A stretch of DNA of 64,000 bases from Candidatus Poribacteria bacterium. Lineage in GTDB: Bacteria > Poribacteria > WGA-4E > PCPOR2b. The stretch covers positions 2,337,527-2,401,526 of the forward strand of contig OY762266.1 in the NCBI GenBank assembly GCA_963665285.1. The letters run 5' to 3'. The translations under genes and the position numbers were made by a program. The first letter of the stretch is position 1. Each line of letters opens with the position of its first letter. Shown here piece by piece: positions 3,322 to 55,556 of this stretch. The notes under the pieces were generated by a model, which worked only from the letters and a program-made list of their open reading frames with translations, was not told the origin of the DNA and searched no databases.

Positions 3322-4983
3322 ATGAAATCTATTTTTCCGGCATGTGTCCTACTTCTCATCAGTAGCCCTTCCATTGCAGACTCGTCGAAGTTTATATCAG
3401 TCACAAAAGAAGCGGGCATCCACTTCAAACACCATGATGGGACGAGCGGACAACGATACTTCATCGAACCCCTCGGTGGTGGCGCAGCATTTCTGGACTA
3501 CAACAACGACGGATTCCAAGACATATACCTCGTCAACAGCGCAGCCCTCTCTCCGCCTCCAAAGGAACAATCAGATAGAAGCGAACCATCACGAAACGCG
3601 CTCTATCGCAACAACGGTGATGGCACGTTTACCGATGTCGCAGTAACAGCAGGGGTCGCCGATACAGGCTACGGTATGGGGTGTGCGGTTGGCGACTACG
3701 ACAACGACGGGTTTCCCGACCTATACGTGACAAACTTCGGGGCAAACGTTTTTTTCCATAACAACGGTGATGGCACCTTTACCGATGTCACGACGCAGAC
3801 AGGTGCCGGGGACACGCGCTGTGGGGCAAGCTGCGCCTTCGTAGATTACAATAACGACGGTTTTTTAGACCTCTATGTGACAAACTATGTGAAGTATGAC
3901 ATCGAATCCGATTCGGTGTGCATGAATAAAGGGGTGCGTGTTTACTGCGATCCGCGCCTCTATGAGGGGGAATTGGATATCCTCTACCATAACAACGGTG
4001 ACGGCACTTTTACCGATGTGACGGTATCCGCAGGCTTTTCTGAGGCAACGGGACGGGGACTTGCCATCGCTTGGGGCGATTACGATGACGATGGTGATAT
4101 GGATATCTATATCGCGAACGATGCCGACCCAAATTTCCTCTACCGCAACAACGGCGACAGTACCTTTACCGATGTCAGCCTGACCGCAGGCGTCGGGTTC
4201 AGTGAAGATGGGGAAGCGGAGAACGGCATGGGCGCTGACTTCGGGGATTACGATAACGATGGCTACTTGGACCTTGTCGTTACCAACTTCCAAGATCAGA
4301 CAAACACCCTCTACCACAACGAAGGGAATGGACTATTCTCGGATGTAAGCTATGCGTCAAAAATCGGGACAATAAGTTTGCCTTACTTGGCGTGGGGGAT
4401 AAGCTTCTTCGATTACGATAATAACGGCTATCAAGATCTGTTCATCGCCAACGGACATCTGGACGAAAATGTTCAGGCGTTCGACCCCACTGGATTTTAT
4501 GAACAGCCCAATCTGCTCTTCCGCAACAATCGAGATGGCACCTTTGACGAAGTCGGTGTTGATTTAGGATCTGGAATGCGCTTGGAAAAGGTCAGCCGTG
4601 GTTTCGCGTACGCTGACTACGACAACGACGGCGATCTCGACCTGCTCGTGACAAACCTGAAGGGGTCTCCAGACCTACTGGAGAATAGGGGAGGACAGAA
4701 TGCGTGGTTGACTCTCAAACTGATTGGTACACGCAGCAATCGGGATGCAATTGGGGCACGGGTTAAAGTAACAACCGGGGACCTAACACAGATTCGGGCG
4801 GTTCGGAGCGGTTCAAGCTACCTTTCGCAGAATGACATGCGTTTGCATTTTGGACTGGGAAAACATCGTCAAGTCGACCGGATAGAGATCCGATGGCCCA
4901 GCGGTCTACAGGAGCACCTTGAAGGAGTTAAAGCGAATCAAATTCTTACGTTGATCGAGGGAACCGTAAAATCGAGCCAGTAG
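3322..4983 (+). CDS. secreted FG-GAP/VCBS-repeat protein with ASPIC/UnbV C-terminal domain (CRTAC1-like)
   Basis: Signal peptide MKSIFPACVLLLISSPSIA. At least 7 repeats of the YRNNGDGTFTDV / GDYDNDG(F/Y)xDL calcium-binding FG-GAP type. C-terminal NAWLxLKLxG...G(A)RVKV UnbV_ASPIC signature. Confidence 0.8.
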   Translation: MKSIFPACVLLLISSPSIADSSKFISVTKEAGIHFKHHDGTSGQRYFIEPLGGGAAFLDYNNDGFQDIYLVNSAALSPPPKEQSDRSEPSRNALYRNNGDGTFTDVAVTAGVADTGYGMGCAVGDYDNDGFPDLYVTNFGANVFFHNNGDGTFTDVTTQTGAGDTRCGASCAFVDYNNDGFLDLYVTNYVKYDIESDSVCMNKGVRVYCDPRLYEGELDILYHNNGDGTFTDVTVSAGFSEATGRGLAIAWGDYDDDGDMDIYIANDADPNFLYRNNGDSTFTDVSLTAGVGFSEDGEAENGMGADFGDYDNDGYLDLVVTNFQDQTNTLYHNEGNGLFSDVSYASKIGTISLPYLAWGISFFDYDNNGYQDLFIANGHLDENVQAFDPTGFYEQPNLLFRNNRDGTFDEVGVDLGSGMRLEKVSRGFAYADYDNDGDLDLLVTNLKGSPDLLENRGGQNAWLTLKLIGTRSNRDAIGARVKVTTGDLTQIRAVRSGSSYLSQNDMRLHFGLGKHRQVDRIEIRWPSGLQEHLEGVKANQILTLIEGTVKSSQ

Positions 4984-42933: not shown

Positions 42934-44376
42934 TTAAATATCATAGTAGAGATGAAATTCGTGTGGATGCGGACGGAGGTTGACTGCATCGACCTCGTTT
43001 TCACGTTTATACTCTATCCATGTATCAATCACGTCCTGCGTGATTACATCGCCTTCGAGCAAGTAGTCATGGTCGTCCTCTAAGGCATCAAGTGCCTCAG
43101 CTAAAGAGCCTGGCGTCGATTCAATTTCTGCCAGTTCCTCCGGCTCCAGATCATACAGGTCTTTATCAAGCGGCTCACCGGGGTGAATCTGATTCCGGAT
43201 ACCGTCAAGACCCGCCATCAGCATTGCGCTAAAAGCGAGATATGCGTTACAGGAAGGATCTGGTGTACGGAGTTCCAGTCGCTTCCCTCCCTCGCTCTGA
43301 GAATAGACAGGAATGCGGATACACGCACTCCGGTTTCTTTGCGAGTATGCAAGATTCACCGGTGCCTCATAGCCCGGGACCAACCGCTTGTAAGAATTGG
43401 TTGTTGGTGCAATGATAGCACACAACGATGGCAGGTGCTTAAGGAGACCGCCGGCGTAGTATAACGCTGCCTCGCTCAACCCAGCATATCCCTGCGGATC
43501 ATAGAAGATGTTTTTTCCATCTTTCCATAAACTCTGATGGCAGTGCATGCCTGAGCCGTTGTCTTCAAAAAGCGGCTTGGGCATAAAGGTCGCTGTCATG
43601 TTGTGGGCGCGGGCTGTATTCTTGATAATATACTTGTACAGTGCCATCTTATCGCCCATCCGGGTCATGGTGTCAAATCGCACATCAATCTCACCCTGTC
43701 CACCGGTGCCGACCTCATGGTGGTGAAGCTCTACATCAACCCCGCAATCGATCATCTTGAGAATCATTTCAGATCGAATATCTTGTAGTGTATCCGATGG
43801 CGGAACGGGGAAATACCCTTCCTTGTAGCGCGGTTTGTATCCAAGGTTCGGTCCATCATAGTCGCCTGTATTTGGATTCCAAGTCCCTTTACCTGTATTC
43901 CAACTCCCTTCAACGGAGTCAACGGAATAAAAGCCTGAATGCTGGTTTTGACCATAGCGAACATCATTGAATACGAAAAATTCAGCTTCAGGTCCCCAAT
44001 AGCTGGTATCCGCAATTCCGGTGCTCTTGAGATACGCTTCCGCTTTTTGAGCGATATGCCGTACATCTCGACTATAGCTTTCTAGGGTGATTGGATCCTT
44101 AATGTTGCAAACGAGACTGAGTGTCGGAATTTTGCAAACCGGATCGACAATCGCTGTATCCGGATCCGGGAAAAGGAGCATGTCGCTTTCGTTAATCGCT
44201 TGGAAACCGCGAATACTTGAACCATCAAAACCGAGCCCATCTTCAAACAGATCTTCCTCAAACTCTGTTGCAGGAATCGAAAAGTGGTGCCACAAGCCAG
44301 GCAGATCCGTGAATTTAAAGTCAACAATTTTGATCTCTTTTTCTCTTGCAAATTCTACAACTTCACTTGGTGTCAT
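42934..44376 (-). CDS. glnA: glutamine synthetase, type I
   Basis: 480 aa. GS beta-grasp and catalytic-domain motifs ([20 protein letters not shown]). RBS TAAGGAG. Confidence 0.9.
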
Positions 44377-44819
44377 CTAAATTCTCCTTAAACATTAAAA
44401 TATTGAGCCAAGCAATGACGATTAAACTTAAGTAGGGTCGGCACTACCCAGCGAACTCACTAAGAACGCGTATGAGCAGCCTCCCAAGGAGAAACATTTT
44501 TACCACGTTTCATACACCCTACTCAACGAATTATTGGAAACAATGGAATTTGAAAACGGGACACCTCAAAGATATAGAGCAAGCGATATGCCAATAATCA
44601 AATCGCTGTCAAAATGAAAAACCAGCACCAATTTTTCTCTGCCCCGTCTTTTTCTTATTTGTAGCAGAGAGTTGGCTCTGATAGGCGGTTTGCCACTGAT
44701 TGTCTTATTATGTGAGGTATCCTTCTAGCAAAAAATTAGTGGTATAATATAAATGCCTTAATCCATAAATGCTGAATTATTGGGCAGATCACTGCTAAAG
44801 TTTTTAGCAATGTGATTAT

Positions 44820-45395
44820 CTACTGATTCAAATCCCTTACAAAACGACTGGCTTCCGGTTCAACTTGTCCCGCATACTTGTTACCCGGTTTTCGGCGATA
44901 GGGTACTTTTGCAGGCGAGGATAATTCTTCAAATGTAAACGCACAGATCCGCATACCGGGGTAGAGTTTAACAGGCATGCGCCCCAGATTTCCCAACTCC
45001 AATGTCGCAGTCCCAACCCAACCTGGATCAAAAAGCCCCGCTGTACTGTGGACAATAATACCCAACCTACCAAGGCTACTACGACCTTCGAGTCGTGCCA
45101 TCACATCGTCGGCGAGTTCGAGGGTTTCGAGGGTTGCCGCGAGGACAAATTCGCCCGGTTGCATGGTAAACGCCTCACCATTGGGAACTTCCACCTTGTG
45201 CATTAGTTCGTTGAGATCGATATCTTCGCGGAGATCGATATAAGGGTACTTACTGTGCTCAAACAACCGGAAGGTGTTCCCTAGCCGGAAATCAATGGAA
45301 CAGGAGCCGAGTTGTTTGGTGAGATCGGGGGTAGGAGCGATTTTGATTTTCCCCATCTCCTGATAACGAACAATATCCTGATCTGATAAAACCAT
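44820..45395 (-). CDS. dcd: dCTP deaminase
   Basis: MVLSDQDIVRYQEMGKIKI...GxxxLxxxR pattern of Dcd/dUTPase-fold enzymes, 191 aa. Start moved to the ATG at 45395, which has a GGGGAGG RBS. The longer ORF-track start has none. Confidence 0.8.
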   Translation of the reverse strand: MVLSDQDIVRYQEMGKIKIAPTPDLTKQLGSCSIDFRLGNTFRLFEHSKYPYIDLREDIDLNELMHKVEVPNGEAFTMQPGEFVLAATLETLELADDVMARLEGRSSLGRLGIIVHSTAGLFDPGWVGTATLELGNLGRMPVKLYPGMRICAFTFEELSSPAKVPYRRKPGNKYAGQVEPEASRFVRDLNQ

Positions 45396-45600
45396 CCGCC
45401 TCCCCTTTTCATTGCTGCTTAATTTGCTCTGTTCCGCAGCAGCGTATGATTCATTATATACTAAAGTCCCCAAAAATGTAAAGAGTAATTTCCTCGCAGT
45501 AGAATTTTGCACAGTAAGTGGAGAGTTGCTATATGTCAATCAGAACCATTTCTTCATATGGAAGTCTTTGATATGAATAGAAAATAGCCAGCAGCTTGGA

Positions 45601-46347
45601 TCACTTCGTAAATACGAGTTCTTCGGCATTCGTCCCCGCATCGGAAGCGAGATTCGTCAGTACCTCGGCGACCTCTTCCGGCTTGAATAGAGTGGACTGT
45701 GCAGCAGCAACAGCCGCTTCCGGTGATTCTCCACCCCTTTCTGCGATTTCGGCGATTGCTCTGAGTTTCAGGGGAGTATTAAGGTTCCCGGGACAAACGA
45801 CATGTACGCGGATACCTAACGGTTCGACTTGGTTCTTCAAGGTAAATCCCAACCCCCGCACACCGCCTTTGCTGGCACCGTAGGCGACAGATGCACTGGG
45901 ACCCGTCACCCCTGCTCCCGATGCGATCAGCACAATTACCCCGCCTCCACTCTTTTCCATCAATGGCACAGCATGTTTAGTGCACAGGAAGGTCCCCCTC
46001 AAGTTGACCCTGATGACTGCATCCCACGCTTCCGCATCGAACTGATCGATGCGTACCGCTGCACCTAGTAGGATGCCAGCACAGGTCACCAACGCATCAA
46101 GCCTTCCAAAGTCCTGTCTGACCGATCCCACCATTGCAGCAACGTCCGCCTCTTGAGAGACATCTGTCCGTATAAACTGGGCAGAGCCGCCCGCCGCTTC
46201 AATGGATTGGACAGTTGCCTTACCATCTGCCTCATTCAGATCGGCGATGATAACTTTTGCTCCCTCTCTTGCATACATCACGGCTGTAGCGGCACCGATG
46301 CCGGTCGCCCCACCAGTGACGAGGGCAATTTTATTTTGTAGTCGCAT
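45601..46347 (-). CDS. SDR-family oxidoreductase (FabG-like short-chain dehydrogenase)
   Basis: TGGATGIG cofactor motif, NAG, and the S...YxxxK catalytic triad. Confidence 0.85.
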   Translation of the reverse strand: MRLQNKIALVTGGATGIGAATAVMYAREGAKVIIADLNEADGKATVQSIEAAGGSAQFIRTDVSQEADVAAMVGSVRQDFGRLDALVTCAGILLGAAVRIDQFDAEAWDAVIRVNLRGTFLCTKHAVPLMEKSGGGVIVLIASGAGVTGPSASVAYGASKGGVRGLGFTLKNQVEPLGIRVHVVCPGNLNTPLKLRAIAEIAERGGESPEAAVAAAQSTLFKPEEVAEVLTNLASDAGTNAEELVFTK

Positions 46348-46422
46348 GGTCTTCCCCTTACACAGATTTGAACTATCTTTAATTATTGAATCTTCATCGT
46401 TTTCCGCTTGCCTCTTTTCCCA

Positions 46423-47526
46423 TTATCGCAATTTGAGGGTACTCAGTGCGACGAGCATCAAGATTAAACCAATAATCCAGAAACGGAGCACCACCTTCGG
46501 TTCGGGCCAACCGAGCTGCTCAAAATGGTGATGTAGCGGCGACATCCTGAACACCCGCTTTTTTCGCGTTTTATAAGAAACAACTTGGATGATGACCGAG
46601 AGTGCTTCCACCACAAAAATCCCACCGACAATCACAAGCAAGATCTCCTCTTTGATTAAGATAGCAATCGTTCCAAGTGCTGCGCCGAGAGCTAGTGAAC
46701 CCGTATCTCCCATGAAAACTTGTGCTGGGTGACAATTATACCATAAAAAACCCACACCGGCACCAATCAACGCAGCGCAGAAGATAGTCGCAGCCTCTCC
46801 ACTAGCAGGAAGGTGGGCGATGTCGAGATAATTTGCTAATTGTTGGTGGCTTGTAAGGTAGCCCAGTACGCCAAACGTGACTGCGACAAACAGAGTACAG
46901 CCAATTGCCAAGCCATCAAGCCCGTCCGTAAGATTCACTGCGTTCGACGCACTAACAATAACCAACGCTGCAAATGGAACGAAGAATATGCCGAGGTCCG
47001 GACGAAGTTGCTTAAAGAAAGGAATGATAATTGATGTCCTTTCGGTCAAACTGTCTTTGGGAACAGGTCCCCATTGGTAGAGGAAGTAGGCAATGGCGAG
47101 CGCGCCGACTGTTTGTAAACAGATCTTATGCCAACCTTTCAATCCGAGTGATTGTTGTTTGGTAATCTTCCGGTAATCGTCCAGAAAGCCGAGTCCGCCA
47201 AACCATACAAGGCTAAAGGTAAGAACAAGAATATAGGGCTGATCCAATCGCGCCCACAGAAAAATTGAAATCAGCACGGACGTGATAATCAGTACACCAC
47301 CCATTGTCGGCGTACCCTCCTTGCTGAAATGTGTTTCGGGACCATCATCCCGGACATGCTGACCAATCTTCAATTGTCTCAGATGTCGAATAACGAAGGG
47401 ACCTAAGATGAGGGCTATAAGTAGCGCAGTTACTGTTGCATAGATGGACCGAAAGCTGATGTAACGGAAAACATTCAGCGGCGAAAAAAACTCCGTTAAT
47501 TGTTCAAAAAATAGATAGTAGAGCAT
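46423..47526 (-). CDS. mraY: phospho-N-acetylmuramoyl-pentapeptide transferase
   Basis: Ten-TM MraY pattern with the conserved DD and HHH regions (SPLHHHFE). Confidence 0.9.
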   Translation of the reverse strand: MLYYLFFEQLTEFFSPLNVFRYISFRSIYATVTALLIALILGPFVIRHLRQLKIGQHVRDDGPETHFSKEGTPTMGGVLIITSVLISIFLWARLDQPYILVLTFSLVWFGGLGFLDDYRKITKQQSLGLKGWHKICLQTVGALAIAYFLYQWGPVPKDSLTERTSIIIPFFKQLRPDLGIFFVPFAALVIVSASNAVNLTDGLDGLAIGCTLFVAVTFGVLGYLTSHQQLANYLDIAHLPASGEAATIFCAALIGAGVGFLWYNCHPAQVFMGDTGSLALGAALGTIAILIKEEILLVIVGGIFVVEALSVIIQVVSYKTRKKRVFRMSPLHHHFEQLGWPEPKVVLRFWIIGLILMLVALSTLKLR

Positions 47527-47664
47527 AGGTAATTTTTGATACTAAGGTTTATCCTTTGGAAATTGGAAGCAATAAGAAGTGAGGAAGAAAAGAAAGTAAC
47601 TGCTTCCTTCCGCTTAACCGACAATTTCAAGCCAGATTCTGCCCGAAGTATTAAGTGCCAAATT

Positions 47665-49032
47665 TCAAGTTTCACGCATCAGTTCTTCCAAGACCTGCTC
47701 CAATTTTATCCCGCGCGACCCCTTGATAAGCACCGCATCGCCGGGTTGAGCGTATTGGATCAGTTCTTGTGCCGCTTGCTTCGGCGTATCACAGGAGATG
47801 ATGGACTCGATCCTGCCTTCTGCTCCATGAGCAATTGCGCGGCCCTGGGGACCAACGGTAATCAATAGATTGATGTTGGTCGGGATAACCTGTCCCGCTT
47901 TCAGGTGGAGCGTGCGAGAATGTTCACCAAGTTCAAGCATATCACCGAGGATTGCAATTCGCTTGCCAGCGATTTCGATATCGCTGAGAAATGTCAAAGC
48001 CGACTTGAGGGACTCCGGGTTTGAGTTATAGGCATCGTTGATAATGTGTAGGTCTTTGTGCAAAATCGGCTGCATCCGCATGTCTGCCGGTTGAAAACGC
48101 TCTAGCCCAGCACAGATCTCTGTCGGCGTTAAACCCGCCCAGAGACCAACGCCGGCGGCAGCGAGCGCGTTATAGATATTGTGTTTTCCCAGACAGGGTA
48201 AATGTACTCTGCCGATTTCGTCCCCACCAATCTTCAAAGTGAACGTAGGTTTCCCGAAACTGTCGATCTCAATTTCGCTTGCAGAAATATCTGCATCATT
48301 TTGCCAACCAAATGTGGTGATTTGACCACACACACGGACGGCAAGTCTCGGTGTCATCGGATCATCGGCGTTAAGGATGGCATGTTCGACATGCGTCAGC
48401 AACGCCCCTTTCTCCTCCACAACCCCTTCAATTGAACCGAGCAACTCCAAGTGCGCTGGTCCGATGTTGGTGATCACACCGACGGTCGGTGTGGTTATCT
48501 GCGACAACCGCTCAATCTCTCCGGGCCAACTGGTGCCAATCTCTAACACAGCAATCTCATCTGCTTCGCTAAGTTGCATCAATCGTGAAGGAATGCCAAT
48601 CTGGTTATTGTAACTTTTCTCGGATTTGAAAACGGAAAACCGCTGTGCCAACACAGAGGTTGTTATGTCCTTTGTCGTAGTTTTGCCGTTGCTGCCCGTG
48701 ATAGCGATGATCGGCAGATCGAACTTGCGGCGATGACAGTTGGCAATATCTCCCAAGGCAACGAGCGTGTCGTTTACCTGCACAATAATCGGCGGGGTAA
48801 GTTGGGATGCATCGGTTACCGGTTTTGAGACAACCGCCCCAATCGCGCCCTGCTGACACACGCCCTCTAGGAAGTTATGTCCATCGAATTTTTCACCGAC
48901 CAATGCGACAAAGAGGTCTCCCTTTTTAAGCGTCCGTGAATCCGTCGAAACCTGCGTTATCACGGTGCCGGGATTGCCTTGGATGAGATTACCCTGCGTT
49001 GCCTGTAGGATTTCAGTAATTGTGAGATTCAT
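47665..49032 (-). CDS. murF: UDP-N-acetylmuramoyl-tripeptide--D-alanyl-D-alanine ligase
   Basis: Mur ligase three-domain layout with P-loop ITGSNGKTTTKD. Confidence 0.9.
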   Translation of the reverse strand: MNLTITEILQATQGNLIQGNPGTVITQVSTDSRTLKKGDLFVALVGEKFDGHNFLEGVCQQGAIGAVVSKPVTDASQLTPPIIVQVNDTLVALGDIANCHRRKFDLPIIAITGSNGKTTTKDITTSVLAQRFSVFKSEKSYNNQIGIPSRLMQLSEADEIAVLEIGTSWPGEIERLSQITTPTVGVITNIGPAHLELLGSIEGVVEEKGALLTHVEHAILNADDPMTPRLAVRVCGQITTFGWQNDADISASEIEIDSFGKPTFTLKIGGDEIGRVHLPCLGKHNIYNALAAAGVGLWAGLTPTEICAGLERFQPADMRMQPILHKDLHIINDAYNSNPESLKSALTFLSDIEIAGKRIAILGDMLELGEHSRTLHLKAGQVIPTNINLLITVGPQGRAIAHGAEGRIESIISCDTPKQAAQELIQYAQPGDAVLIKGSRGIKLEQVLEELMRET

Positions 49033-49137
49033 GATGATGGGTGGGTTATAAGTAATTGTTTCCTGCGACCAGCCCGCTGGGACAGGTAATAATAGGAATC
49101 GCTATAGGGTGAAGCGGTTGAACAGATCGATTTGTCC

Positions 49138-49287
49138 CTATTCTCTGGTGTTTTCGTTGCCTGCGATTTTCTCAATTTTGTCTGCGATCCTTTCGATCGC
49201 ACGAACAGCTCGTAAAAGAAGCCAGACAGGAAGAATATACAAGGGTGCCATCAATAAGAGTGGGAAGAAAGCACTGACAAAGTCCAT
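49138..49287 (-). CDS. unannotated 49-aa small membrane protein between murE and murF
   Basis: ATG at 49287 preceded by GGGAGGTGA. MDFVSAFFPLLLMAPLYILPVWLLL (one TM helix) followed by a charged tail. Same strand as the dcw cluster. Missed by the 60-aa ORF cutoff. Confidence 0.4.
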   Translation of the reverse strand: MDFVSAFFPLLLMAPLYILPVWLLLRAVRAIERIADKIEKIAGNENTRE

Positions 49288-49338
49288 ATTGAGTCTCACC
49301 TCCCGGCACTGTGGTTGAGTCGAATTATTGCTCTAGCA

Positions 49339-50805
49339 CTACTTCAACTGCTCAAGAAATTCTCCTGCGATTTCTCGATCATCGAAATCAAATCGGACAC
49401 CATTGATTTCTTGATACGGCTCATGCCCCTTGCCCGCAATGGCGACGAGATCGCCCGCTTTTGCCCGCTCAATTGCATGACCGATCGCAGTCCGACGGTC
49501 CTGAATGAGGCCGTAACTTGCGCCGTCGGGTAAGCCTTCCACAATATCGGCGAGAATCGTATCTGGTTCTTCCGTGCGTGGGTTATCGGAGGTGATCACG
49601 CTGTGATCGGCGATGGCCGCCGAGATATTGCCCATCTTCGGACGTTTACCACGGTCTCGGTCTCCGCCGCAGCCAAAGACGGAGATTAAACTGCCCTGCG
49701 TAATCTTTCGTGCAGCGGTCAACAGGTTTTCCAAACCGTCAGGTGTATGCGCATAGTCTACGACAACGGCGAAAGGTTGTCCTCGGTCAACTAACTCAAA
49801 TCGTCCCGGTACAACTGTGGATTCCAGTCCTGCTTGGATCGCCTCAAGCGGGCAGTCGTGGTGTACCCCTATCCCAATCGCAGCGAGAGCGTTATATAGG
49901 TTGTAATCTCCCAGCAGACGCAGATTTGCTGAGATTTTTCCCTTCGGTGTGTTTGCAACGAATGAGAGCCGTTTGAGTGTTGATTCGACATTGGAGACCG
50001 ACAGATCCGCCGGCCCCTCAACCCCAAAGGTAAGGCATGGGGAATTGGTTTGATGTCGGATTGAATCGGAGGCGGGGTCGTCTGTGTTAAGGATTGCCAG
50101 ACCGTTGTCAAGATTGAGTTGCTGAAACAACATCATCTTGGCGTTCAGATACTCCTCCATCGTCTCATGGTAGTCGAGATGATCTTGTGTCAGATTGGTG
50201 AAAACCGCTGTTTCAAAGGTGAGTCCAGCCAAGCGGTGCTGTGCGAGCCCTTGCGATGAGGTTTCCATGATGACATAATCTACCCCAGCATCCGCAATGT
50301 CTCGGAACAGTTCGTGAAGCGTCAATGGCTCAAGTGTCGTAATCGTCGGCTCCACGAAGACATCTGCGTAATGGGTTCCAACCGTGCCCATGAACCCCGA
50401 CTTCAGTCCCGCAGCGTTGAAGATCGAATGCGCTAAATGTGCTGTTGAAGTCTTGCCGTTTGTACCGGTAATGCCAATCAGTTTCAGCCGATCCGCCGGA
50501 TTCCCGTACCAGTTTGCTGCGATGAGTGAGAACGCGATGCGTCCGTTTGACGTTTGGATATAGGTAACGTCGGGCGGCATTGACTCCGGTTTCTCCCCAA
50601 CAATCGTCGTTGCACCGTTTTGGATGGCTTGTGGAATAAAGGTGTGTCCATCAACATTGACGCCTTCATAGCAGACAAAGGCGTACCCCGGCTCCACCGC
50701 CCGACTATCGCTTGCAACGCCGGTAATCTCTTTATCAAGCCCTCCAGTTGATGAGAGGATATTTACTCCTTGGAGTAAGCGATGTAAGTTCACAACCTTG
50801 TCCAC
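49339..50805 (-). CDS. murE: UDP-N-acetylmuramoyl-L-alanyl-D-glutamate--2,6-diaminopimelate ligase
   Basis: P-loop ITGTNGKTST plus a DNPR motif region (SDNPRTE) that indicates meso-DAP specificity. Confidence 0.9.
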   Translation of the reverse strand: MDKVVNLHRLLQGVNILSSTGGLDKEITGVASDSRAVEPGYAFVCYEGVNVDGHTFIPQAIQNGATTIVGEKPESMPPDVTYIQTSNGRIAFSLIAANWYGNPADRLKLIGITGTNGKTSTAHLAHSIFNAAGLKSGFMGTVGTHYADVFVEPTITTLEPLTLHELFRDIADAGVDYVIMETSSQGLAQHRLAGLTFETAVFTNLTQDHLDYHETMEEYLNAKMMLFQQLNLDNGLAILNTDDPASDSIRHQTNSPCLTFGVEGPADLSVSNVESTLKRLSFVANTPKGKISANLRLLGDYNLYNALAAIGIGVHHDCPLEAIQAGLESTVVPGRFELVDRGQPFAVVVDYAHTPDGLENLLTAARKITQGSLISVFGCGGDRDRGKRPKMGNISAAIADHSVITSDNPRTEEPDTILADIVEGLPDGASYGLIQDRRTAIGHAIERAKAGDLVAIAGKGHEPYQEINGVRFDFDDREIAGEFLEQLK

Positions 50806-50850
50806 CTCCGACCTTCAGAAAATCTTATAACAATAGTCTTATAGTCTCAA

Positions 50851-52620
50851 TTAATGTAGTGCTGATTGAGTTTCCACATAGCTTGGGTCTGAGTCCTGAA
50901 CAAAGAGATTCTTTTGACTCAAATAGCGCATCGCTTCACTCGCAATCTTTTGGAAAATTGGGGCTGTGACATGGCTGCTCAACGGAGCACCCGCTGGCTC
51001 ATCAACGACAACAATAATTGAGAGTAGCGCATCCTCCGCCGGAAGAAACCCTGCAAAAGTAGCGACCACTTTGCCTTCGACGTATCCCTTTCCTCGCTCC
51101 GCTTTCTGTGCTGTGCCGGTTTTGCCAGCAACAGCATATCCTTCGACACGCGCTCTCAGTCCACCGCCAACTTCCGTCACCCCGACAAGCATTTGTGTCA
51201 TTGCTTGTGCAGTTTCTACAGAAATGACGCGACGAATCGGCTGAGGCGAGGATTGCTCTATCAGATTTCCATCCTTATCAATAATTTGTCGAGTGATATA
51301 CGGTTGCAGCAGTACGCCTTTGGTAGCAATAACGTTGATGGCATTTAACATCTGTATGGGTGTCACAGAAATCCCCTGCCCAAACGGAACAGCGGCAATC
51401 GTGTAGTCATCCCATTTCTGGATACCCCTCAGGCTGCCGATACGTTCGTAAGGCAGATCGATACCGGTTTTTTCACCGAATCCAAACCGGCGCGTATAGC
51501 CCTCCAACTGCTCTTTATCAAGATATCTTGCAGCCTTAAGGATACCGATATTACTGGATTTTGCGATAATTTCACTGAGTGTTAGCCACGCATTGGGTTT
51601 AATGTCGTGAACAACATGCCCATTGGACAAACGATATTCCCCCATCTCGCAATACTCACGCGAGTACGGAGACATCAGTTTCTCGTTGAGGAGTGCAGCA
51701 GCGGTAACAATCTTAAACACAGAACCGGGTTCGTATTGCATCCAGATAGCGCGATTTCGCTTGGCTGATTCTTCGCTCCTTGAGTAGTGATTGAGATTGT
51801 AGTTCGGATAATTTGCTAATGCCAAAATTTCGCCGCTTTTGGAGTGCATGACGATTGCACTCCCCGACCTCGCTTGCCACTCCTCACAACCGGCAATCAG
51901 TTCCCTTTCTGTGATATGTTGGATGTACTCATCAAGCGTAAGGACAACGCTACGTCCGTGTTGCCCGCCTTGCTGATAAAGTTGGGGTGGACGAATCGGG
52001 CGTCTCTTACCATCGGCAGTGATCCGATTACTTGTTGATTGTGATTCTCGGAGGTTGTTATTGTTACTGGTACTTAGGTAGGCATTATATTGATGTTCGA
52101 TCCCATCAATACCTCTATTTTCAAAATTGGTATATCCAATAATATGGGACGCTAGTTCGTCTTTTGGGTAGGAGCGTTTTCCATGGGTCCGATATCCGAT
52201 CCCATAAATGCTTTTAGTGATTTGGCGGATATCGTTAAGCCGTTCATAATCTAAGTTCCGTTTCAGCCAAACAAAACGCCTTTTCTTTTTCTGCAGTACC
52301 GACAAGAGTCTATCTTCCGAGACATCGAGTAGCGGCGCAAGTTTACTAGCAATCTCATCAGGCTTATCTCTCAGCACTTTTGGATCTGCATAGACCGAGA
52401 TTAAGTCCTGATTGATTGCAAAGACGCTTCCGTGCCGATCCAAAATCGTAGCGCGCTTTGTCTGAGAGCCCACTTGCGTGTTACGCTGATTTTCAGAACG
52501 TTTGCGCAGCTCCTGACCGTGTACATACTGGATTAGAAATAAGCGTCCTATCAATAATCCTAAGCAGAGTTCCAAACCGACCCATACGATTGTAATCCGG
52601 GACAAAGGTATATTGTTCAT
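50851..52620 (-). CDS. ftsI: peptidoglycan D,D-transpeptidase (class B PBP, FtsI-like)
   Basis: N-terminal TM anchor, PBP dimerisation domain, and a transpeptidase domain with SxxK (SVFK), SxN and KTG (KTGT) motifs. Confidence 0.85.
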   Translation of the reverse strand: MNNIPLSRITIVWVGLELCLGLLIGRLFLIQYVHGQELRKRSENQRNTQVGSQTKRATILDRHGSVFAINQDLISVYADPKVLRDKPDEIASKLAPLLDVSEDRLLSVLQKKKRRFVWLKRNLDYERLNDIRQITKSIYGIGYRTHGKRSYPKDELASHIIGYTNFENRGIDGIEHQYNAYLSTSNNNNLRESQSTSNRITADGKRRPIRPPQLYQQGGQHGRSVVLTLDEYIQHITERELIAGCEEWQARSGSAIVMHSKSGEILALANYPNYNLNHYSRSEESAKRNRAIWMQYEPGSVFKIVTAAALLNEKLMSPYSREYCEMGEYRLSNGHVVHDIKPNAWLTLSEIIAKSSNIGILKAARYLDKEQLEGYTRRFGFGEKTGIDLPYERIGSLRGIQKWDDYTIAAVPFGQGISVTPIQMLNAINVIATKGVLLQPYITRQIIDKDGNLIEQSSPQPIRRVISVETAQAMTQMLVGVTEVGGGLRARVEGYAVAGKTGTAQKAERGKGYVEGKVVATFAGFLPAEDALLSIIVVVDEPAGAPLSSHVTAPIFQKIASEAMRYLSQKNLFVQDSDPSYVETQSALH

Positions 52621-52739
52621 AGGGTATTATGCAGAAGTGTAACAGTGTGCACTACTGAGGAGATTCTTCAAGGAAGTAGGTATTCCAGAATACCTCAAAG
52701 GTTAAGGGACTGCACAATTAAACGCTCGACTCACAGATC

Positions 52740-53033
52740 CTAATCAGCGTGCAGCTCACGGGCTGACTCGGAGGGTTGAACCATCTGGAGATCTTTCGCG
52801 ATTTCGTGAATCCGTTCAATCGAAGTGAGCCTTGTTTCCTGTATTTTGAGCCTATTGATTTCGTTGTGGAGCTGATCTCTTCGCTGCTCAAAGTCCTCAC
52901 GCATTTGCAGCGCAACCTTGTGCTGGCTTGACGCAAACCATGCACTCAGAAAAAAGATACCGATGTAAATGGCGAGTGCGAAGTATGCAAAGGGATGAAA
53001 TTTTGACGATGGAGCTGGTTTTTGGTATTTCAT
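52740..53033 (-). CDS. ftsL: cell division protein FtsL-like
   Basis: 97 aa with a single TM helix and a coiled-coil segment, positioned between rsmH and ftsI. Confidence 0.65.
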   Translation of the reverse strand: MKYQKPAPSSKFHPFAYFALAIYIGIFFLSAWFASSQHKVALQMREDFEQRRDQLHNEINRLKIQETRLTSIERIHEIAKDLQMVQPSESARELHAD

Positions 53034-53093: not shown

Positions 53094-54110
53094 TTAATCT
53101 GGCGTTTTAGATTCGTGGATCTTCATCGCAACCCGTAATTTCGCACTTCGGGACCGAGGATTGCGTCGAATTTCATCGGGGGTTGGAACTATTGGACGCT
53201 TGGTCAGTATTTCAAGAGTAGGTGTATGCTGACATATACAGATAGGAGTCTTCGGCGGGCAGATGCAAGCACGTGAGAGGGCGCGGAATTGTTCTTTAAC
53301 AATTCGATCTTCGAGAGAATGGAAAGAGATGATGCATAAGCGTCCACCGGGCTTCAAAGCGGCAGAGGCACAATGTATCCCGGAATGCAGGTTTTTAAGT
53401 TCATCGTTAATATAAATTCTTAACGCCTGAAAAACCCTTGTCGCGGGATGGATGCGCCAACCCGTTGATTTGTGGGGAATCGCATCCAGAACGAGTTCAG
53501 CCAGTTGACCCGTTGTTGAGATTGGCTTGCGTTTTCGAGCGCGAACAATCTGGCGCGCAATCTTTTTAGACCAACGCTCTTCACCGAATTGTGTAAAAAT
53601 CGTTGCGAGCGCGTCCTCTGGATGGCGGTTCACGACGCGCGCTGCTGATAGAGATTGGCTGGCATCCATCCGCATATCTAAGGGACCAGAGCGATTGAAA
53701 CTAAACCCTCTTGCCGGCGTATCAAGCTGCAAAGATGACACCCCTAGGTCTAGTAAAATGCCATCAACTTGCGGAATCGTGGCTTCCTGCGAATCTCCAC
53801 TGCAATGCAGTTGAGGTAGCTGATCTAAGTGAGCAAAATTATCACTAACAAATGCTACCCGCTCCTCATATTCGCGCAGCCTTTCCTCGGCAATAGCCAA
53901 CGCCTCCGCGTCCAAATCAATCCCAAGTAGGAACCCTTTCGGCGCAGATTTTTGTAAAACGACAGCGGCATGCCCACCTAATCCAACCGTGCCATCCACA
54001 TAAAAACCGTGGTTTTTCGGTTGTAAAAACTGAATCACTTCATCAACTAGAACAGGTATGTGGTCCTCACCCATCTCTTTCTGAGTCTCCCTCGTTTTCG
54101 TTCTGCTCAA
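53094..54110 (-). CDS. rsmH: 16S rRNA (cytosine1402-N4)-methyltransferase
   Basis: HIPVLVDEV...DGTVGLGGH...SAM-binding motifs of MraW/RsmH. The start could instead be the internal ATG at 54074. Confidence 0.9.
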   Translation of the reverse strand: MSRTKTRETQKEMGEDHIPVLVDEVIQFLQPKNHGFYVDGTVGLGGHAAVVLQKSAPKGFLLGIDLDAEALAIAEERLREYEERVAFVSDNFAHLDQLPQLHCSGDSQEATIPQVDGILLDLGVSSLQLDTPARGFSFNRSGPLDMRMDASQSLSAARVVNRHPEDALATIFTQFGEERWSKKIARQIVRARKRKPISTTGQLAELVLDAIPHKSTGWRIHPATRVFQALRIYINDELKNLHSGIHCASAALKPGGRLCIISFHSLEDRIVKEQFRALSRACICPPKTPICICQHTPTLEILTKRPIVPTPDEIRRNPRSRSAKLRVAMKIHESKTPD

Positions 54111-54171
54111 TCAGGCATACACCCCTTTCCCGCGTTGATTTGGGAGGTGCTTACCAATCTTGCGTGCAATG

Positions 54172-55556
54172 CCCCATCCCTTTAGGGTGGGGATGTAGCA
54201 CGCCCAAGTGCGTTGTTAGTCAAAAAACGGTTGAGATTGCAGGTAAAAGATGCTACAGTTACCTTGGCTTTCGTGAGAGGGCGCAACTTCGCTGCTTAGT
54301 GGCACCTCTCACCTCCAATTGCGTGGACATGAAATCCAGATAGCCAATTGCATAATGAAAACCTACAAGTTCAAAATGTATAGCAACCACAATAATCGTG
54401 AGTTGCAAAAAACGATTGACAGCCATGCTCATGTGTGGAATCACTTTGTGGCGTTGTGTCGCCGATACTATGCTATCTACGGGACATATCCGGGTAAGAA
54501 AGCACTGATGCGCCACTTAACCAAGTTGAAGCGGCTTCCCCGCTTTGCCCATTGGAATCAGTTGCCGAGTCAATCGTTGCAAGACGTAATAGACCGACTT
54601 GATAAAGCGTACTCTAAACTGTTTACTGACCGCAAAAGCGGCAAACGTTCCGGTCGTCCCCGTTTCAAGAGACGTAAACTATACAAGTCCTACACGCTCA
54701 AGCAAGCGGGTTGGAAACTGCTACAAGACAACTATATCCGTATCGGCAAACGGATATACCGATATTTCAAAAGTCGGAAAGTCTTAGGCACGCCGAGACG
54801 CTGTACGATTAAGCGGGACAGCGTAGGGGACGTATGGCTAATCATTCTGACAGATCATGTAGAGATGCCCTTGAATCGACCCACGACGGGTAACAGCGCG
54901 GGGTTCGATTTTGGACTCAAGCGGTATCTCACCGGGTCCGACTCCAATGACTACGACTCTCCACAATTCTTCAAACGGAGTCTCAACGCTATCAAACGTG
55001 CAAACCGCAACCGCTCACGAAAGGTTAAAGGTTCAAACAACCGTGAACGTGCGAGACTCAATGTTGCACGGAAACACCGACGTATTGCCAATCAAAGAGC
55101 CGACTTCCATTGGCAGCTAGCGCATGAGCTAACAGACCGGTATGATTGGATTTCACTGGAGACCCTCACCATTAAGGGCATGAAAAGCCTTTGGGGTCGT
55201 AAGGTCTCTGATTTGGGGTTCTATGACTTCGTCCAGAAACTGAAGTATATTAACTCTAAGAAACAGCATCGTGAAGTCCGATTCATTGATAAGTGGTATC
55301 CATCAAGCCGAACCTGTCACGTCTGTGGCGCAATTAATCAAGATCTGAACCTTCGTGACAGAACATGGCAATGTCCAAATTGCCACACAGAGTTGGATAG
55401 AGACCGTAACGCTGCGGTCAATATTCATAGGGTAGGGGCATCTACCCTCTCAGAAGAGGTCGTAAGTCCCAGTTCACCGGGCTAACTTCGTTGATAGAGC
55501 AATTCGACACCTTAAAAGGGAACGGGTGAGAATACCCACCCTTTAGGGTGTGGGAG
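54172..55556 (+). mobile_element. IS200/IS605-family tnpB-only element (IS1341-type), approximate bounds set by subterminal hairpins
   Basis: CCCCATCCC-TTTA-GGGTGGGG (54172-54192) upstream and CCCACCC-TTTA-GGGTGTGGG (55535-55556) downstream of tnpB share the CCCTTTAGGGTG core. No tnpA. Confidence 0.5.
54355..55485 (+). CDS. tnpB: TnpB (IS605 OrfB family RuvC-like, putatively RNA-guided, endonuclease), apparently intact
   Basis: MKTYKFKMYSNHNN N-terminus. RuvC-I (AGFDFGLKRYL), RuvC-II (ISLETLTIKGM), zinc finger (CHVCG...CPNCH) and RuvC-III (DRDRNAAVNI) all present in one frame. Confidence 0.85.
   Translation: MKTYKFKMYSNHNNRELQKTIDSHAHVWNHFVALCRRYYAIYGTYPGKKALMRHLTKLKRLPRFAHWNQLPSQSLQDVIDRLDKAYSKLFTDRKSGKRSGRPRFKRRKLYKSYTLKQAGWKLLQDNYIRIGKRIYRYFKSRKVLGTPRRCTIKRDSVGDVWLIILTDHVEMPLNRPTTGNSAGFDFGLKRYLTGSDSNDYDSPQFFKRSLNAIKRANRNRSRKVKGSNNRERARLNVARKHRRIANQRADFHWQLAHELTDRYDWISLETLTIKGMKSLWGRKVSDLGFYDFVQKLKYINSKKQHREVRFIDKWYPSSRTCHVCGAINQDLNLRDRTWQCPNCHTELDRDRNAAVNIHRVGASTLSEEVVSPSSPG

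Follow-up and report, generated by a model that had tools for sequence, protein, structure and literature searches.

Does the 306-nt gap between murE and murF in the dcw operon of a Candidatus Poribacteria bacterium hold a gene of its own and, if so, does the place of that gene tell us what its product does? We addressed this question in a 64,000-nt stretch of contig OY762266.1 (hereafter the window), for which a preliminary description, made from the letters alone, had reported a minus-strand frame for a 49-residue membrane protein and had suggested that it could modulate the division or wall machinery.

The reading frame between murE and murF

We examined the setting of the gap (49033..49338), which lies within a partial dcw operon on the minus strand. 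Pfam matches identified rsmH (54110..53094), the first gene of this operon in the window, followed by a true ftsL (53033..52740; matches to PF04999/PF04977) and ftsI (52620..50851). The genes flanking the gap were confirmed above NCBIfam cut-offs, as the preliminary description had placed them: murE (50805..49339), the upstream neighbour, scored 568 bits with NF001126 (cut-off 373) and 514 bits with TIGR01085, and murF (49032..47665), the downstream neighbour, scored 408 bits with TIGR01143 (cut-off 288.6). Similarly, mraY (47526..46423) exceeded its curated NCBIfam cut-off. The operon is short; mraY is followed on its 3' side by a short-chain dehydrogenase, dCTP deaminase and glnA (glutamine synthetase), without murD or ftsW (window 42934-47526). 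mraZ is absent 5' of rsmH (54111-55485), and a divergent plus-strand gene begins at 54355.

Translation of 49287..49138 (minus strand) yielded MDFVSAFFPLLLMAPLYILPVWLLLRAVRAIERIADKIEKIAGNENTRE, 49 codons running from an ATG at 49287..49285 to a TAG stop at 49140..49138, in exact agreement with the peptide first described. The frame is co-oriented with murE and murF; 51 nt separate the murE stop from its ATG, and 105 nt lie between its own stop and the murF ATG. Reading the sequence upstream of the start revealed a perfect 9-nt Shine-Dalgarno sequence, GGGAGGTGA (49304..49296, minus strand), 8 nt before the ATG, bearing out the earlier judgement that it is near-ideal; the GTG at 49299, given as the start in the ORF list, falls inside this element and is thus not the real start. 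Such a site is exceptional here, since a Shine-Dalgarno match of at least 4 nt was found for only ~19 of the 43 long ORFs of the window, and ftsI, murF and mraY have no recognisable one (window 52621-52640, 49033-49052 and 47527-47546, respectively, minus strand). A scan of the minus strand from 48500 to 49900 returned neither terminator-like nor promoter-like sites. The small gene would thus be co-transcribed with rsmH-ftsL-ftsI-murE-murF-mraY, and would be efficiently translated.

We then looked for the gene in other genomes. A search of 5.8 billion proteins returned 25 homologues at E values of 1e-11 to 1e-23, most of them exactly 49 aa long, and a scan in which each GTDB species was represented by a single genome found 11 loci (L003-L013), all of them in Candidatus Poribacteria MAGs. 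Together with seven loci obtained by exact-protein look-up (L023-L029), and excluding the window's own contig, 18 Poribacteria loci were compared. The small gene keeps its reading frame and stands between murE and murF in 18/18, with mraY, the dehydrogenase and dcd next, and its product shares 63–100% identity with its Poribacteria homologues; in L001, ftsI, murE, the small gene, murF and mraY all match the window at 100% identity. The Shine-Dalgarno sequence is retained as well: [GC]AGGAGGTGA or GGGAGGTGA is found 5' of nearly every copy in the other Poribacteria loci, and GGAGGTGA or a close variant stands at an equal distance from the start of nearly every copy. The gene has already been called by gene callers in public ENA/NCBI assemblies, where its product carries a precomputed weak PF26262 match; the label "unannotated" given to it earlier does not hold.

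Selection on the frame was evaluated with the Nei-Gojobori method over eight 49-codon orthologues. The sense frame gave a pooled pN/pS of 0.27, and variable columns were distributed 18/13/32 over the three codon positions, an enrichment at the third position (chi-square against equal counts ~9.2, 2 degrees of freedom, p ~0.01). Compared with the window, the small gene had dN/dS values of 0.09–0.37 in 12/14 comparisons, so that synonymous and nonsynonymous changes are distinguishable; the remaining two (dN/dS 0.98) come from the outlier pair L026 and L027, in which the transmembrane half has diverged. For the same genome pairs, the flanking genes gave dN/dS values of ~0.1 (murE and murF) and ~0.04 (mraY). 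These results indicate that the small-gene frame is under purifying selection, as read from substitution patterns.

On the opposite strand, the gap also holds a 69-aa ORF (49109..49318, plus strand; ORF list), which the preliminary description had set aside, and which we likewise reject as a gene. It lacks a Shine-Dalgarno sequence, its boundaries shift from genome to genome, and stops interrupt it in 6/8 orthologous sequences. The antisense frame that shares third positions with the small gene showed a pN/pS of 0.31, but this closeness to the sense value is expected, precisely because third positions are shared. The plus-strand ORF is a by-product of the minus-strand gene. Taken together, conservation of frame, position and start signals indicates that the 49-codon frame is genuinely a gene, one that has been conserved and that encodes a very small membrane protein with a single helix.

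The frame could also act as a translated leader (an upstream ORF), or as part of an RNA element, that controls murF, the peptide itself being functionless. The absence of a Shine-Dalgarno sequence from murF, set against the perfect one of an ORF 105 nt upstream, fits such control, as do conserved nucleotides in the spacer after the ORF: a non-coding 13-nt motif, GATCTGTTCAACC (49116..49128, minus strand), begins 9 nt past the stop codon and is kept after nearly every Poribacteria copy, diverged tandem paralogues included (L003-L013, L023-L028), although it was not found after family members of other phyla. A 105-nt spacer is, however, too long for coupling by termination and reinitiation, and the spacer showed little sign of structure: Rfam gave no relevant match at E<=10, folding was no better than that of shuffled sequence (z = +0.81), and alignment folding produced a consensus of only 4 weak pairs. 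Furthermore, the amino-acid sequence is under purifying selection rather than free to drift, and homologous proteins occur elsewhere in unrelated gene contexts. Conservation of the protein thus already largely refutes control by a leader, which we regard as extremely improbable.

Protein architecture and family membership

We next considered what the 49 residues encode. Kyte-Doolittle windows of 19 residues scored 1.6–2.2 over residues 1–29, and hydropathy and AlphaFold together predict one transmembrane helix at codons 4–25 (VSAFFPLLLMAPLYILPVWLLL; 49213..49278, minus strand). The tail that follows (residues 26–43) is strongly amphipathic, with a hydrophobic moment of 0.83; the single helix and charged tail of the preliminary description are thereby reproduced. 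AlphaFold, supplied with a 99-sequence alignment, modelled residues 2–47 as a single continuous helix (mean pLDDT 90). The N-terminus reads M-D-F, and three arginines, R26, R29 and R33, stand directly after the transmembrane segment; by the positive-inside rule, this arrangement would place the N-terminus outside and the C-terminal helix in the cytoplasm.

A small single-pass protein whose helix continues out of the membrane, encoded in this operon, resembles FtsL and FtsB (DivIC). The likeness does not extend further. The small protein had no PF04999 or PF04977 match even at E<=10, its tail measures only about 24 residues, and its family is found elsewhere outside division clusters. Furthermore, its arginines predict a cytoplasmic tail, whereas the coiled coils of FtsL and FtsB are periplasmic. 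When the peptide and its relatives were scanned against Pfam and NCBIfam, only noise below threshold appeared (PhoU, HemY_N, OAD_gamma, YajC). A profile search of the PDB gave nothing below an E value of about 1, its matches being limited to designed coiled-coil peptides and one transmembrane helix of a transporter.

Deeper profile searches placed the protein in a wider family. With the Poribacteria profile, HMMER run exhaustively against 1.84 billion representatives found 22 clusters at E<=1e-3, including proteins of 44–68 aa with the same layout, and the profile widened with distant matches reached 506 proteins at E<=0.01. Among the best 120 of these 506, most carry a precomputed label of PF26262 (DUF8066), and profile search links the window protein to PF26262 carriers at E values of 1e-9 to 1e-20. 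The precomputed PF26262 match of the window protein itself is "weak" (E between 1e-5 and 1e-3), while its relatives P0118 and P0075 have unmarked matches (E<=1e-5). The local Pfam copy gave no PF26262 match for the window protein or for 99 relatives, and does not contain or return this entry; formal membership thus rests on the precomputed labels, of which that for the window protein is "weak". By profile similarity and shared layout, the small protein belongs to, or stands very close to, the uncharacterised DUF8066. Members occur in Poribacteria, in Planctomycetota (Sedimentisphaerales) and on unassigned metagenome contigs. Literature searches found no mention of DUF8066 or PF26262, and nothing relevant on small membrane proteins in dcw clusters or on Poribacteria together with peptidoglycan.

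Members of PF26262 share a length of about 42–70 aa and an N-terminal transmembrane helix followed by an R-x-V-R-A-x-E-[RK]-I-A motif. In the window protein, the juxtamembrane motif reads R-A-V-R-A-I-E-R-I-A-D-K-I-E (codons 26–39; 49171..49212, minus strand). The 99-sequence family alignment showed R26, E32 and A35 to be invariant, with V28, R29, A30, I34 and E39 at least 90% conserved, and defined a family core, R-x-V-R-A-[IV]-E-[RK]-I-A-x-K-x-E, that begins straight after the membrane helix. Since conservation falls on all faces of the helix, this segment probably lies buried, whether within a homo-oligomer or at the interface with a partner. The Poribacteria branch differs from the other members in a C-terminal D-N-E-N-T-R-E tail, not seen elsewhere, and it is the only branch, among the members seen, with tandem or internal duplications and a fixed dcw position. 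On a GC-rich metagenome contig (L037, 3902-4177), we observed a 91-aa variant in which additional hydrophobic segments at the N-terminus precede the family motif, here LRFVRALERIA; the family thus also has multi-helix forms.

Genomic positions and copy number

We then compared the positions that family members occupy. Outside Poribacteria, the gene is found 3' of nifU-nifS (L021, L035 and L043/L044/L046); 3' of recA and directly 5' of alaS in a Sedimentisphaerales MAG (L030); after a dnaK fragment (L039); after pyruvate:ferredoxin oxidoreductase (PFOR; L041); amid secreted-protein genes (L016, L040); and beside a spermine-synthase-like gene (L020). No family member outside Poribacteria was in a dcw cluster at the loci examined; the contigs of two relatives, P0041 and P0035, are too short to give a context. 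The sub-branch with tails of the form ...KIENSxKI consistently lies just 3' of nifU-nifS (L021 1765-4153; L035 1720-4114; L043 1804-4108), which constitutes a second clade-specific fixed position, in this case in an iron-sulfur cluster assembly operon. These unrelated contexts indicate that the dcw position is specific to the Poribacteria lineage, and leave a cell-wall role for the protein at no more than a weak hint.

These comparisons bear on the suggestion of a modulator of division or wall machinery, for which we found nothing beyond the position of the gene in one lineage. In its most specific form, this suggestion makes the protein a dedicated, lineage-specific peptidoglycan-precursor factor that tethers MurE and MurF beside MraY, or binds MraY itself and tunes lipid I synthesis. 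Every Poribacteria locus examined has the gene at the murE-murF position, two genes 5' of mraY; it is co-oriented with the mur genes, with no terminator between them, and its Shine-Dalgarno sequence is far stronger than those of the adjacent genes. Furthermore, a membrane-anchored cytoplasmic helix would have the right geometry for contact with the Mur ligases and MraY. On the other side, homologues with the same motif never stand in dcw clusters at the loci examined elsewhere (nifU-nifS-X, recA..X-alaS, dnaK-X and others, where X is the family member). The Poribacteria loci also come from fairly close relatives (MurE 88–93% identical), in which synteny could simply be inherited, and conserved synteny is thus weak evidence of functional linkage either way.

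The operon also accepts other insertions. The ftsI-murE gap measures only 45 nt in the window (50806-50850); in many Poribacteria relatives it holds a 271–276-aa ORF with no Pfam match (L023 1572-2402; L025 1571-2401; L026 1569-2384), and similar gaps are present in L004, L008, L009 and L011-L013. One Poribacteria lineage has a fragment of IS605 OrfB/TnpB (Cas12f-like) between ftsL and ftsI (L028 1216-1545; L029 991-1545). The dcw operon thus tolerates insertions other than the small gene, which weakens the argument from position. Together with a copy number that varies against single-copy murE, murF and mraY, these observations lead us to consider a dedicated wall factor unlikely.

This variation in copy number was examined across the Poribacteria loci, which have one to three tandem paralogues each. 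Two diverged tandem copies lie between murE and murF in L005 (3300-3650) and L008 (3300-3650), and three in L009 (3232-3966); in L009, part of the murE 3' end is duplicated as well (3649-3774; 52% identity to MurE residues 447–488). By their N-termini, the paralogues fall into the types MDF..., MPVLEF..., MESGF... and VEMFF.... Similarity among the small proteins does not track that of the flanking genes, as in L028, where MurF is 93% identical and the small protein 63%; this discordance points to birth-and-death turnover at the locus.

Length varies as well, with in-frame forms of 43, 45, 48, 49, 69, 70 and 73 aa. Internal duplication of the tail helix without loss of frame (...EKIADNLWAISRTNTRSVEAIEKVADRIERIADNENTRE) gave rise to the 69–73-aa forms, which are found in L009 (3232-3444), L010 (3501-3713), L012 (3477-3698), L013 (3480-3692), L023 (4001-4222) and L025 (4001-4210). 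AlphaFold modelled the 70-aa form as one long helix (residues 3–69, pLDDT 77); a hairpin in which the duplicated helix folds back, which would favour self-association, is neither supported nor excluded by this model. Every length variant keeps the frame except at the tail of L011 (3486-3728), where an 80-aa version retains the motif up to ...IADKIEK, after which the frame changes and runs into the start of murF—either a frameshift mutation or an indel error of long-read assembly.

Tandem multiplication of a short hydrophobic peptide at one locus recalls type I toxins such as Fst/Ldr, TisB and Hok, which are likewise below 60 aa and combine a hydrophobic helix with a charged tail. By this account, the gene would encode a toxin-like or selfish peptide at a permissive intergenic site, controlled by antisense RNA and prone to tandem expansion. 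The one to three copies, the diverged paralogue types and the discordance of the gene tree with the flanks all fit, and the post-stop motif adds a possible control element: read on the plus strand, the GATCTGTTCAACC region contains TTGAAC-N15-TAYTCT, a promoter-like pair with a short spacer that points into the small gene. The motif may therefore be a candidate antisense promoter or a binding site, although its spacer is only 15 nt long and a sigma-70 promoter scan did not call it.

In type I toxins the hydrophobic segment is what matters, and the families are narrow. In the small protein, by contrast, the best-conserved part is the soluble juxtamembrane helix, the motif of which is invariant across phyla and distant lineages. 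The gene is, moreover, co-directional within an essential operon, with a perfect and exposed Shine-Dalgarno sequence, no promoter of its own, and RNA folding no better than shuffles. The family also gave no PADLOC or PHROG match and no viral locus. We therefore consider a toxin-like or selfish peptide very unlikely. A phage or defence origin is likewise rejected, given the lack of meaningful matches to PHROGs and PADLOC and the absence of family members from a scan of viral contigs.

A candidate role for the small protein

The reading that we prefer, with a probability of roughly 55%, is that the translated gene encodes a 49-residue, single-pass inner-membrane protein of the DUF8066 type that serves as a small membrane-anchored adaptor, and that location in the dcw operon characterises the Poribacteria lineage and is not evidence of a family dedicated to wall synthesis. 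The adaptor role is suggested by the architecture of the protein and its pattern of conservation: through its conserved juxtamembrane helix, the protein would associate with further copies of itself or, on the cytoplasmic side of the membrane, bind a larger partner. The presence of one to three tandem copies, and of a gene tree discordant with the flanks, speaks against this reading, neither being usual in a housekeeping subunit.

Small accessory subunits of membrane complexes offer a working analogy for such an adaptor. In Escherichia coli, AcrZ (49 aa), KdpF, CydX and MgtS are single-helix proteins of this kind. The window protein resembles them in its size, in its one transmembrane helix that leads into a short, predicted cytoplasmic helix, and in its location in or beside operons, and it may work like AcrZ, KdpF or CydX. 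The resemblance is one of general design and not of homology, as no Pfam or NCBIfam match, and thus no sequence similarity, connects them. Furthermore, these accessory subunits usually adjoin the gene of their partner in many lineages, whereas the neighbours of DUF8066 genes change from clade to clade.

A more elaborate scheme would combine several of these observations. In Poribacteria, a DUF8066 protein would have been recruited to modulate, from its membrane anchor, the committed membrane step of wall synthesis, by bringing MurE and MurF to MraY or by tuning MraY itself; stoichiometry would be adjusted through copy number and the duplicated tail helix, and the post-stop motif would drive an antisense RNA that sets its level, the whole forming a small regulatory module within the dcw operon. 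We consider this scheme quite unlikely. That the small protein acts on the cell wall at all is only weakly suggested, by the position of its gene in one lineage.

These results show that an ORF falling short of common length cut-offs is a true gene. Its product is a further member of a known, uncharacterised family, encoded at a lineage-specific genomic position. For the family, the analysis provides first facts: an invariant juxtamembrane motif, a single continuous helix, and stable, clade-specific positions in housekeeping operons. Should the Poribacteria copy prove to bind MraY or one of the Mur ligases, it would represent a new kind of small peptidoglycan-precursor regulator in an uncultivated phylum of sponge symbionts.
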